Shown: positions 20,919-30,002, counted from the stretch's first letter. The stretch: 30,002 bases of DNA from an uncultured Clostridia bacterium (GCA_947629735.1 CANREX010000001.1:1-30002); one strand, 5' to 3'. Notes: generated by a model not told the origin, from the letters alone. Made by a program: numbers and translations.

Positions 20919-21455
20919 TCAGATTTCCGCGCTGTCGTAAATTTTGCCGTCGAGCGTCTTGAACAAAAACACGCCGTCCTCGTACAAAATGTAGCCGCGC
21001 GTGTTTTTTTCGTCCTTGGGCAGCGCCACAGAGCCCGGGTTGAGGTGGAGGTAGCCGCCCTCTTCAACTGCGTTCAGAGGCACGTGCGTGTGACCCGTTA
21101 TGTAGACGTCTCCCTTTTTAAGCGGCGGCACTGCCCTGTGCCCGTGCGAGAGGGTGATTACAACCCGCCCGTCGCTTATCGCGGCGTAGTCGGACGAGAT
21201 GTTGAATGAAAGCACCATCTGGTCGACCTCGCTGTCGCAGTTGCCGCGCACCGCGATTATTTTGTCCGCGAGCGGGTTTAACATTTCGTATACCTTCGCG
21301 GGCGCATAGCCCTCGGGCAGCGGGTTTCTCGGACCGTGATAGAGTATGTCGCCCAAAAGGACAAGCCTTTCCGCCTTTTCTCTTGCAAAACATTCCAAAA
21401 GCTCTTCGCACCATTTTGAAGAGCCGTGAATGTCGGAGGTTATTAGTAGTTTCAT
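20919..21455 (-). CDS. yfcE: YfcE/MJ0936-family metallophosphoesterase
   Basis: SDIHGS, LGDILYHGPRN, VRGNCD, SHGH, GHTH, NPGS; true start MKLLITSD at 21455 with SD AAGGAG (the ORF-track extension to 21707 is not credible). Confidence 0.9.
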   Translation of the reverse strand: MKLLITSDIHGSSKWCEELLECFAREKAERLVLLGDILYHGPRNPLPEGYAPAKVYEMLNPLADKIIAVRGNCDSEVDQMVLSFNISSDYAAISDGRVVITLSHGHRAVPPLKKGDVYITGHTHVPLNAVEEGGYLHLNPGSVALPKDEKNTRGYILYEDGVFLFKTLDGKIYDSAEI

Positions 21456-21471
21456 AATTGATATCTCCTTA

Positions 21472-21623
21472 GCTGCCGCTAAACGTATATAAATAAGTTC
21501 ACAAAAATTTGCGCGCGGTTGCGCGCCCGCAAATTTTTCGTGAGGGTGAGCGGCTCTGCCGTTCTTGCCGCCATTTAAGGGCGCGCGAATTATATTATGG
21601 CGGCAATTCACACCGCCGAGGTG
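21472..21623. ncRNA. Dispersed structured element, copy 1 (candidate ncRNA or MITE-like repeat)
   Basis: Colinear conserved blocks shared with 29841-30002; two stems with compensatory differences. Confidence 0.55.
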
Positions 21624-21831
21624 CAGGTATGCACAAATTGAGACGAGCGCGGAGCTTCTCAAAACAGCACAGTGCGCTGTTTTGCCGCGCGAGATGAGTG
21701 AGCGCATATCGTTCCGCGCGAACGGCGACCGAACACGGCGTTGCCCTTACGCCGTGTGAGAGCGCTGCGCAAAATCGCGGTTTTGCTTGCGCCGTTAATA
21801 ATTTGGGAATGTGCTGCGGTATTTTAAAAGT

Positions 21832-22265
21832 TGTCATTTCGACCGATTGAGAGCGCGTAGCGCTCGATTGAGTGGAGAAATCCCCTCGTGGTGGTAGGGA
21901 GTTGCGGTGAAACGGCTTTATCTCTTAATAATACCGGATTCTTCGACTGCGCACCTGCGGTGCTTGCTCAGAATGACAGTAAGGGAGAGGGGGGATAGGG
22001 GTGTCGCCCTCGGGCAGAATAACAAAGGGTGTCACCCTGAGCGGAACGAGCCGTAAGGCGAGTGCAGTCGAATGGGTCTGGTTGGGGTATGCCGCAAAGA
22101 AAATTCCTGAGTGCAATGAAATACCGGATTCTTCGACTTCGCTAACGCTCCGCTCAGAATGACAGTAAGGGAGAGGGGGGATAGGGCTATCTCGCTCGGG
22201 CAGAATGACAGTAAAAAAGAATGTGTTCACTCCGCATTGTCATTCCGTCCACGGGCAGAATGACA
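21832..22265. repeat. Cluster of two REP doublets (21832-21978, 22030-22164) plus mini-hairpin derivatives
   Basis: TGTCA...TGACA termini; arms TGTCATTTCGACC..GGAGAAATCC, GGATTCTTCGACT..GCTCAGAATGACA and TGTCACCCTGAGC..GTCGAATGGGTCT; a ~90-bp block is duplicated ~190 bp apart. Confidence 0.85.
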
Positions 22266-22335
22266 GTAAAAATAATAATCGTCTCAATCTAACATAAATA
22301 ATGTGTGCGCTTATCCATGCAAAAAAATGCGGTGG

Positions 22336-23124
22336 TTATCCTATAAGCTGCTTCATTTTTTCGATTACGCCGAAGTCGGCGTTGGAAGCAATTATCTCGC
22401 CAATCCGCTCTTTCAATGCGGGGAAGCCGTTGGCGGTGACGTACGCCCGCCCCGCCGCGGCGAGCATTTCGTAGTCGTTCATGTGGTCGCCGAACGCGGC
22501 GCACTCACCCTTTTCCACGCCCAAAAAGTTCATCAGCGCGCAAAGCGCCTTGCCCTTGTTTGCGCCCTCTCGGCAGACGTCCACCCAATCGTAGCCCGAA
22601 ATGAGTGTGCGCAGCCCTTTGATGAGGGGCGGCAGAATTACCCCGCCGTGTTCCGCAGCGGGAAGGCTGTCCCAGACGGAGATTTTCAGCGCGGTGTTAT
22701 TCATCGCCGCCGTGCGCAGGCTTTCCACCTTTTCCGTCGCCGAATAGGAGCGGTTGAGCGTCCGGATAAACCTCGGGCAGTCGTCCTCGTAGTACGCGCA
22801 GTCCGCGCAGGAGAGCACGGGGTACAGCCTGTCCACGCCGCGGATAATTTCCAAAGCGCGCACAATATCCGCCTCGGGCGTGGGGTCGGAAAAGATGACG
22901 TCGCCCTTGTAATACACAAGCCCGCCGTTTTCGGCGATTATGGCGACGTCGTCCAGCACGGGCGCGAACAGCTTTTTGAGGTTAGGCAGCTGCCGCCCGC
23001 TCGCGGGAGCGAAGACCCCGCCCGCCGCCGTGAATTTCTTTATCAGCGGGAATGTCTCTTCCGGCATTATCTTTGTGGGAGGGAGCAGCGTCCCGTCCAA
23101 ATCGCTCGCAATAAGTTTCAGCAC
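22336..23124 (-). CDS. Cof-type HAD-IIB family hydrolase
   Basis: IASDLDGTLL, ASGR, NGG, NKGKAL, AFGDHMNDYEML; GTG start. Confidence 0.93.
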   Translation of the reverse strand: MLKLIASDLDGTLLPPTKIMPEETFPLIKKFTAAGGVFAPASGRQLPNLKKLFAPVLDDVAIIAENGGLVYYKGDVIFSDPTPEADIVRALEIIRGVDRLYPVLSCADCAYYEDDCPRFIRTLNRSYSATEKVESLRTAAMNNTALKISVWDSLPAAEHGGVILPPLIKGLRTLISGYDWVDVCREGANKGKALCALMNFLGVEKGECAAFGDHMNDYEMLAAAGRAYVTANGFPALKERIGEIIASNADFGVIEKMKQLIG

Positions 23125-29787: not shown

Positions 29788-29840
29788 GAGCAAAAGGGGC
29801 GCGGGCGGAGAGGTTTTCTCCGCCCGCGCCCCTTTTGCTC
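29788..29840. terminator. Bidirectional intrinsic terminator
   Basis: Perfect 24-bp inverted repeat GAGCAAAAGGGGCGCGGGCGGAGA/TCTCCGCCCGCGCCCCTTTTGCTC with a 5-nt loop. Confidence 0.8.
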
Positions 29841-30002
29841 GCTGCCGCTAAACGCAGATATGCGGCGCAAGACAAATTCACAAAATTCTCGCGCAGCCCG
29901 TGCGCTGTGAATTTTCGTGAGATTGAGGGCTACTCGCCCTCTGCCTGCGATTTTTAAGGGCGCGCGAAATATATAATCGCAGGCATTCACCTCGCCGAGG
30001 TG
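29841..30002. ncRNA. Dispersed structured element, copy 2 (runs to the window edge)
   Basis: Same block order and stems as 21472-21623. Confidence 0.55.

Follow-up and report, generated by a model that had tools for sequence, protein, structure and literature searches.

The segments of DNA at 21472-21623 and 29841-30002 share a series of motifs in the same order, and one of their hairpins has a different stem sequence in each segment, with both versions fully paired. This raises the question of what kind of element the two segments represent. A preliminary description, made from the sequence alone, had proposed an undescribed multi-copy RNA or ssDNA element, with a MITE as the other candidate. 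The window, that is, the whole 30,002-nt stretch of DNA that was analyzed, is the first contig of a 1.40-Mb draft genome of an uncultured Clostridia bacterium (163 contigs, 93.6% complete). Our analysis indicates that both segments belong to a longer repeat, here named unit A, which is probably an interspersed DNA repeat that is neither coding nor autonomous and is confined to a single genus of uncultured gut Clostridia with small genomes. It is one of several module types that build mosaic arrays between genes. The family is previously undescribed, but it is of a kind that is already known (SPRITE, BOX, REP/BIME, and MITE-like repeats).

Extent and copies of unit A

All of the motifs that had been listed were present, in the order given, in both segments, and homology between copy 1 (21472-21623) and copy 2 (29841-30002) was well above chance (nhmmer E=2.4e-13). 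Copy 2, which is cut at its 3' side by the contig end, scored 113 bits against the covariance model described below. The preliminary description had counted two copies; BLAST and nhmmer instead found approximately 20 matches or fragments in the source genome, and H1 was intact in 18 of these. Many of these copies were located near contig ends, so much of the fragmentation of the assembly is owed to the unit A family. Short high-copy repeats make up 3-4% of the source genome, and unit A accounts for part of this share.

The 152 nt first delimited are only part of the unit, which measures approximately 200-220 nt with H4 and has five hairpins (H1, H1.5, H2, H3, and H4); its core (H1, H1.5, H2, and H3) is approximately 145 nt long. 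Hairpins 1 and 2 had been drawn correctly, including the bulged C and the A-tract and T-tract arms between TTCAC and GTGA in the first, the TTGCCGCCAT/ATGGCGGCAA stem in the second, and the TGCCTGCGATT/AATCGCAGGCA stem around a nearly identical loop in copy 2. The description was incomplete, however, in that H1.5, H3, and H4 had been overlooked (Table 1). The first of the shared motifs, GCTGCCGCTAAACG, is present in both copies but is part of a separate 25-36-nt module (H0) that is absent from most copies in other species, which begin at TTCAC.

In copy 1, a 120-nt repeat (module B) is nested within unit A and interrupts it; in metagenomic contigs of DNA from other unit A copies, 21640 is followed directly by 21762. 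The H4 region, which has a T-rich tail, corresponds to positions 176-222 of the nhmmer profile, and its inner stem is variable, with the variants of relatives staying paired. The 5', middle, and 3' parts of unit A were found on their own as well. By self-BLAST, an 814-bp repeat mosaic (21469-22282) with up to 84 partners makes up the whole intergenic region around copy 1, and 1-278 and 29793-30002 are likewise repeat mosaic. Unit A is approximately 50% GC and contains no conserved ORF. A small ORF in copy 1, with an ATG after GAGGTG, was rejected as non-coding because the ATG lies inside H3 and is missing from the GCGAAA.. allele.

Table 1. Coordinates of unit A, its parts, and adjoining features in the window.
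Feature	Position	Strand	Remark
H0, 5' adaptor module, (TA)GCTGCCGCTAAACG..ATAA	21472-21497	+	stops in all three frames; common to repeat family D; outside core
H1, TTCAC / A-tract / GC-rich stem / T-tract / bulged C / GTGA	21498-21543	+	bidirectional, intrinsic-terminator-like
H1.5, short hairpin GAGCGGC-tct-GCCGTTC	21548-21564	+	loop is the module B insertion site in other copies
H2, 10-bp stem TTGCCGCCAT/ATGGCGGCAA, conserved 22-nt loop (TTTAAGGGCGCGCGAA-TATAT(T/A)AT)	21565-21606	+	
Conserved linker TTCAC(A/C)C.GC.GAGG, then H3, then conserved CAAATTG	21607-21640	+	
H3, GTGCA-ggta-TGCAC	21621-21634	+	
Module B, nested 120-nt repeat with conserved TAAGGGCAAC hairpin loop, between H3 and H4	21643-21762	-	compared with uninterrupted copies
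H4 and 3' end of unit A: outer GCGC/GCGC, inner GCAAAA/TTTTGC, then CGCCGTTAAT-ATTT	21763-21809	+	
Rest of repeat mosaic, other module families	21810-22282	.	fills gap to HAD-hydrolase stop codon at 22336
GC-rich native-type terminator hairpin of mntR-like gene, directly 5' of copy 2	29788-29840	+	
Copy 2, H0 long form (GCCGC..GCGGC hairpin)	29841-29876	+	
Copy 2, unit A core (H1 allele B, H1.5, H2 allele TGCCTGCGATT)	29877-30002	+	contig end at model position 128/145

Covariation of the hairpins

Copies from the source genome and about 15 related species were aligned. In an alignment of 49 copies made with MAFFT only, 92.9% of cells in the stems of H1, H1.5, H2, and H3 were paired, and double changes occurred at 28 of 39 pairs; with partners shuffled, 78.7% were paired, with the arms slid, 38-48%, and none of 500 shuffles reached any observed measure. 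A covariance model, R1, was built, and re-alignment of 71 copies to it gave 95.2% of cells paired and double changes at 37 of 39 pairs (74.9% shuffled, 37-49% slid; 0 of 500 shuffles reached the observed values). Since the structure itself guided the re-alignment to R1, the MAFFT value is the more cautious of the two. In the R1 alignment, double changes affected 18/18 pairs of H1 (93% of cells paired), 5/6 of H1.5 (94.5%), 10/10 of H2 (98.2%), and 4/5 of H3 (98%); for H4, they affected 6 of 12 predicted pairs in 13 sequences. The 71 copies had 42 distinct 5'-arm alleles of H1, 22 of H1.5, 25 of H2, and 17 of H3. A long-range GTGA-TCAC pairing enclosing H1.5 and H2, which RNAalifold drew from the full MAFFT alignment, was not adopted because it shows no variation among 13 sequences and because many relatives have TTCCC in place of the second TTCAC.

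Between the stems, loops and linkers were invariant or near-invariant (AAGGGCGC..TATAAT, TTCAC, GC.GAGG, and CAAATTG), and they were kept across species whose orthologous proteins are just 55-76% identical. The bulged C of H1, an asymmetric feature, was also nearly invariant. Conserved loops and linkers, massive stem covariation, and a kept asymmetric bulge are points against reading unit A as a DNA repeat, and a functional RNA would show all three. Unit A could accordingly be a functional structured RNA that has been multiplied, either a cis-acting 3'-UTR module or a small RNA whose loops and linkers (AAGGGCGC.., GCUGAGG, and CAAAUUG) bind a protein or targets. The very strong covariation in four hairpins favors this explanation, as does the stability of single-sequence folds, which was above that of shuffles for the + strand RNA (z = -2.7; -2.0 for the - strand RNA and -3.3 for DNA). 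We nevertheless regard a functional RNA as unlikely, and the composition of the stems is one reason. Stem cells were 94.1% Watson-Crick, 1.2% G-U, and 0.6% A-C (which is G-U on the opposite strand), with no strand bias, and hairpin-by-hairpin folds agreed with approximately 1% G-U. Long-lived RNA stems are usually richer in G-U and show strand asymmetry.

How the stem sequences differ among copies also bears on the question. The changes between the two window copies had been taken as selection on structure. Family-wide, structure-preserving covariation is overwhelming, but the differences between the two window copies are those of two pre-existing, reassorting alleles. In the source genome, H1 and H3 alleles occur in all four combinations, H1 and H2 alleles likewise, and copy C15 has a chimeric H2. 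Since all four allele combinations are present, the window copies differ by two circulating alleles and not by compensations made in place. At one orthologous site, two species have unit A with different H1 alleles.

Distribution and insertion polymorphism

Of 40 other species in the genus that were searched with R1, 33 contained unit A, with 1 to 76 or more copies in each; six species had more than 30, and the 41 genomes of the genus together gave over 500 matches. The other 7 species had 0 copies, although completeness was 94-99% for six of their assemblies and 83-85% for the seventh. Outside the genus, R1 gave two weak single matches in a set of 150 genomes representing 95 genera of the order. 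Phages, plasmids, and IMG/VR were searched for unit A with no match in any, and an origin from these sources was rejected. Presence in most species of the genus is in keeping with a functional RNA; 0 copies in seven species against more than 60 in others is not. R1 can be used to mask or annotate unit A repeats in gut metagenomes.

Copy 1 had been said to end immediately before the yfcE SD on the minus strand, and the sequence bore this out: it ends one base before the reverse-complemented SD of a YfcE-like (Metallophos_2) gene. In the source genome, 878 bp of repeat array (21458-22336) separates this gene from a HAD-hydrolase gene. In at least 13 related species, the two genes abut, with the stop codon overlapping the start codon (..TTATGA..). 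The overlap reads AAGGAG..TTATGA in these relatives (L031-L057 compared), which suggests translational coupling. Diverged copies of the junction were seen at both sides of the array (ATGAAGCAGCTTATAGGATAA at the HAD end and TAAGGAGATATCAATTATGA at the yfcE start); these AAGGAG..TATGA copies may be a decayed old target duplication. Copy 1 is antisense, with its H1 beside the yfcE-like SD, and forms part of the 878-bp insertion, which split a HAD-yfcE gene pair that had overlapped ancestrally. At least one gene pair that appears to be translationally coupled has, on this evidence, been split by the repeat.

Copy 2 lies downstream of an mntR-like gene. Nearly all of 27 relatives had no unit A at this place, and most had plain terminator hairpins; two relatives alone had unit A matches, approximately 300-500 nt further on. 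Strain variants were looked up by exact protein, which yielded one informative contig for the mntR-like protein and none for the yfcE-like protein. The informative contig comes from a second strain of this species: the MntR-like protein is identical, and over 660 nt the DNA is 97.9% identical. The contig keeps the mntR-like terminator and H0, after which a different module replaces the A core.

The terminator itself differs between the two strains (29788-29840 in the window, L133:590-640 in the second strain): AAAAGGGG..CCCCTTTT is AAATGGG..CCCATTT in the other strain, with both arms changed and flanks approximately 98% identical. This symmetric change looks like a compensated palindrome change made in one step. 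The difference between the strains has the pattern expected from one-step template switching within palindromes, a process shown to give rise to hairpins and to maintain them (PMC8794818). Because such template switching and the recombination of hairpin alleles can both yield covariation, covariation alone is no proof of an RNA gene. Unit A is therefore a caution for ncRNA discovery, with textbook covariation (37 of 39 pairs) in a DNA repeat that has almost no G-U.

Nesting and reassortment

Modules B and C occurred, in either orientation, inside H1, H1.5, and H4 as well as between H3 and H4; in three copies (C85, C142, and C138), module B lies in the H1.5 loop, in the orientation opposite to that in copy 1. 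At the DNA level, copies of unit A come and go and are rearranged, their hairpin alleles recombine, and smaller modules insert into their hairpins. Gain, loss, and module swaps between strains and species stand against a functional RNA, as does the persistence of units broken by 120-nt insertions. The preliminary proposal of a multi-copy, structured element with conserved single-stranded loops was correct. The dedicated ncRNA that it also implied is not supported, given presence and absence among genomes, reassortment and nesting, a range of 0 to 76 or more copies, approximately 1% G-U, and variable orientation.

Gene context and orientation

H1 is an 18-20-bp hairpin between an A-tract and a T-tract and was flagged as terminator-like on both strands. 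Like a SPRITE, it combines a long duplex, flanking A- and T-tracts, and a location near the 3' ends of coding sequences. By our own gene calls, the upstream gene was co-oriented with unit A in 43 of 61 copies. With a stricter coding test applied to 71 copies, 24 were co-oriented and 16 opposite (24/40). The orientation of unit A relative to genes, about 60-70% co-oriented, is a bias and not a rule. In 20 of the 24 co-oriented cases, the upstream stop codon was 0-15 nt before TTCAC, and in one further case it was inside the element. In opposite-oriented cases, copy 1 included, the H1 end was 10-30 nt from the start codon of the divergent gene, with little beyond the SD in between. This spacing to stop and start codons makes the H1 end consistently the gene-proximal boundary of the arrays, with other modules accumulating 3' of it. 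The orientation of the downstream gene was near random (27 same and 20 opposite).

H1 is probably a bidirectional Rho-independent terminator, or a 3'-end stabilizer or barrier for the adjacent gene, a role predicted from its structure. A terminator role has been proposed for SPRITE in pneumococci (PMC3049150). Antisense copies would put a strong terminator directly before the SD of a gene, so H1 may be leaky or may not be primarily a terminator. Unit A is a clean natural case of a terminator-like hairpin spread to dozens of gene ends.

Two of the alternative explanations can be weighed against this context. In its cis-acting version, the functional RNA would be a terminator with processing or stability hairpins that is transcribed together with the upstream gene. 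The orientation bias and the tight stop-codon spacing agree with such a module, and the spacing could reflect a 3'-UTR function at the RNA level. However, 30-40% of copies are antisense to the neighboring gene, and a consensus scan of 21300-22400 for sigma-70 promoters found 0 sites. The second alternative, which we consider highly improbable, is that unit A is a Correia-like portable cassette of terminator and promoter that punctuates transcription: H1 would stop the upstream transcript, TATAAT in the H2 loop would start the next one, and H3/H4 would form its leader. TATAAT is near-invariant in this loop, and in compact cases the next co-oriented gene is 5-50 nt past unit A, which leaves no space for another promoter. 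Sigma-70-like promoters have also been reported in Correia and other MITEs (PMC10969869). In contrast to what a promoter would require, there is no -35 element at 16-18 nt and no TG extension, in line with the 0 sites of the consensus scan; a TTGCCG-like hexamer in the 5' arm of H2 is approximately 23 nt away. Part of the conservation of TATAAT can be explained by A-T extension of the H2 stem, and the near-random orientation of the downstream gene does not fit a promoter either.

Search for known families, mobile-element hallmarks, and partner enzymes

The statement that the segment matches no known RNA family was borne out: at the Rfam gathering threshold, the window element and 17 loci of relatives gave no matches, and at E<=10, region 21400-22320 gave noise alone. 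The lack of an Rfam match counts against a functional RNA. No match of unit A to IS ends was found, and the family has more than two copies, with covariation; the observations that the preliminary description had named as refuting it were therefore not made. TAAGGGC was considered as a genome-wide uptake or Chi-like motif and rejected, as it is not over-represented (189 observed, 177 expected).

A MITE, the other candidate named at the outset, is closer to what we found than an ncRNA is. Unit A is small, non-coding, multi-copy, and dispersed. Terminal inverted repeats and target-site duplications, by comparison, were not demonstrated. The ends show a weak A/T-rich resemblance in source-genome copies only (5' TTCACAAAAATT and 3' AATTATTTGGGAA, with TTCACAAAAATT resembling the reverse complement TTCCCAAATAATT), and the 3' ends of relatives vary. 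Neither a target-site duplication nor a precise empty site was found at the compared sites, where divergence and module replacement blur base-exact boundaries. No related autonomous IS with unit A ends was found in the source genome, and the larger repeats of that genome, considered as autonomous elements, proved to be ordinary paralogous genes.

Three enzymes were considered as partners and rejected. Y1/RAYT does not co-occur with unit A copy number. The sole Y1 transposase found in the source genome (IS200-type, at C23) is not flanked by unit A repeats; Y1 was present in 8 of 30 other species, three of which (G005, G021, and G023) have 0-3 unit A copies, and the high-copy genomes G004, G010, G020, G024, and G043 have no Y1. 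For TnpB (omega-RNA/PATE), no TnpB zinc ribbon was found in the source genome. DUF559 does not co-occur with unit A and is absent from both the source genome and G024, which has 69 unit A copies; the DUF559 ORF of G010 has modules of other types, not unit A, on its flanks.

Two of these genes have surroundings of their own. The Y1 gene (G000 C23:13488-13958, L029) encodes 156 aa, bears no relation to the repeat families, and has flanking hairpins of its own. Directly 3' of it, an open frame read by eye resembles the C-terminal end of an integrase-like gene, into which the Y1 gene may have inserted. In G010, the DUF559 (Vsr-like nuclease) ORF (L129, G010:C1:121673-124990, at 1501-1818) lies in an array, approximately 700 nt downstream of a unit A copy.

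Another explanation, to which we assign a low probability, is that single unit A copies are isolated ends of a larger foldback element in which two copies form an inverted doublet with H1 outwards; the element would be REPIN-like, or a transposon with an enzyme gene that has been lost, was not assembled, or lies elsewhere. The high-copy relative G024 has four A(+)...A(-) inverted pairs approximately 385-540 nt apart and a fifth approximately 1 kb apart. The H1 hairpins of these doublets are at the outer ends and abut the flanking genes, and arrays generally have the 5' end of unit A at the gene-proximal boundary. However, the centers of the G024 doublets differ, contain other repeat modules only, and have no conserved ORF; no such doublet is assembled in the source genome. 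The lack of co-occurrence with Y1/RAYT and the finding that the larger source-genome repeats are paralogous genes, not IS elements, also weaken this explanation.

Comparison with known repeat systems

By analogy, the closest counterpart of H1 is the pneumococcal SPRITE, and the closest counterparts of the modular arrays are BOX elements and BIMEs. SPRITE (PMC3049150) is, like unit A, a small non-coding interspersed repeat near gene 3' ends that is confined to close relatives and clusters with other repeat families, with elements inserted in each other. Its duplex of approximately 18 bp with AAAA/TTTT flanks resembles an oversized Rho-independent terminator, as H1 does, and no target-site duplication, empty site, or transposase has been established for either. 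The two have no sequence similarity, so that the likeness is a functional analogy and not homology. H1 differs in having additional TCAC/GTGA closing pairs and a conserved bulged C, and it is the first of five hairpins, the remainder of which have invariant loops. Unit A is also approximately 50% GC and not AT-rich, and its host is an uncultured gut Clostridia genus.

BOX (boxA-boxB(n)-boxC, in pneumococci) and the BIMEs of E. coli (REP mosaics) share with unit A the combination of modular hairpin units in intergenic arrays, a variable number of modules, and arrays that differ among strains. The modules of unit A are different and longer. REP and BIME depend on RAYT, none of which is present with unit A, and unit A showed neither the TIR nor the TSD that have been reported for BOX. 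Unlike those of BOX and BIME, unit A alleles differ from one another chiefly in stem sequences that are fully compensated.

REPIN/RAYT systems resemble unit A in their hairpin repeats with near-perfect stems, a conserved recognition motif, and sometimes inverted doublets, and recognition as folded single strands has been proposed for them. In contrast, the source-genome Y1 is an ordinary IS200-type gene unflanked by the repeat, the highest-copy relatives have no Y1, and unit A is far longer than REP. Classical bacterial MITEs (Correia/CREE, ERIC, and RUP; PMC10969869) are likewise <500 bp, non-coding, multi-copy, and intergenic, with stable hairpins, and they can affect termination, promoters, or mRNA processing. 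Unit A differs from them in that it has no clear end-pairing TIR, TSD, or related autonomous IS, and it folds as a series of local hairpins in place of a single long foldback.

Possible basis of hairpin maintenance

If unit A is a DNA repeat, as we favor, a trans-acting protein may recognize the near-perfect stems, the invariant loops and linkers, and the bulged C on a folded single strand. The conserved asymmetric bulged C of H1 points to a folded single strand, of DNA or RNA, as the recognized form. Intra-hairpin template switching or gene conversion may also keep the stems perfect. More speculatively, and with a small chance of being correct in our judgment, unit A could be the substrate of an unrecognized folded-strand system without Y1/RAYT, TnpB, or DUF559, in which an enzyme would read the AAGGGCGC..TATAAT loop and the bulged-C hairpin, or it could be a co-opted genus-wide RNA 3'-end module (terminator and protein-binding hairpins) that punctuates compact operons.

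Other modules of the arrays

Module B (21643-21762; also at C85, C142, C138, C151, and other contigs of the source genome, G000) is approximately 120 nt long and has approximately 20 or more self-BLAST partners. Its hairpin has a constant TAAGGGCAAC loop and varying stems (GGCAAATG/CATTTGCC compared with CACGGCG/CGCCGTG), and the module nests in unit A at two different sites, in both orientations. Its depth was very high in rabbit-gut DNA runs. In one RNA run (X14), which is available as contigs only and is uninformative either way on unit A, contigs covered 21658-21761, within module B, and membrane-protein genes, and none lay over unit A.

The regions 21810-22282 and 1-278 contain additional repeat families, for which self-BLAST found up to 84 partners. 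They include units bounded by inverted motifs of the TGTCATTC(C/T)GAGC ... GCTCAGAATGACA type and GGGAGGGG-rich pieces, and together with unit A and module B they fill whole intergenic gaps. H0 (GCTGCCGCTAAACGCAGATAA..) heads a family of approximately 170 nt, family D, at 15 or more loci of the source genome (G000 C7:20244-20409, C150, C30, and others). Family D is more abundant than unit A in this genome, and in the second strain it occupies the site that holds copy 2 in the source genome. In three loci of relatives (L024, L027, and L096), a third small module of approximately 55 nt (..CGAGCGTAGCGACGG..TTATTATAAATATTTCAGATAAT..) was seen within H1 or H4 of some unit A copies.
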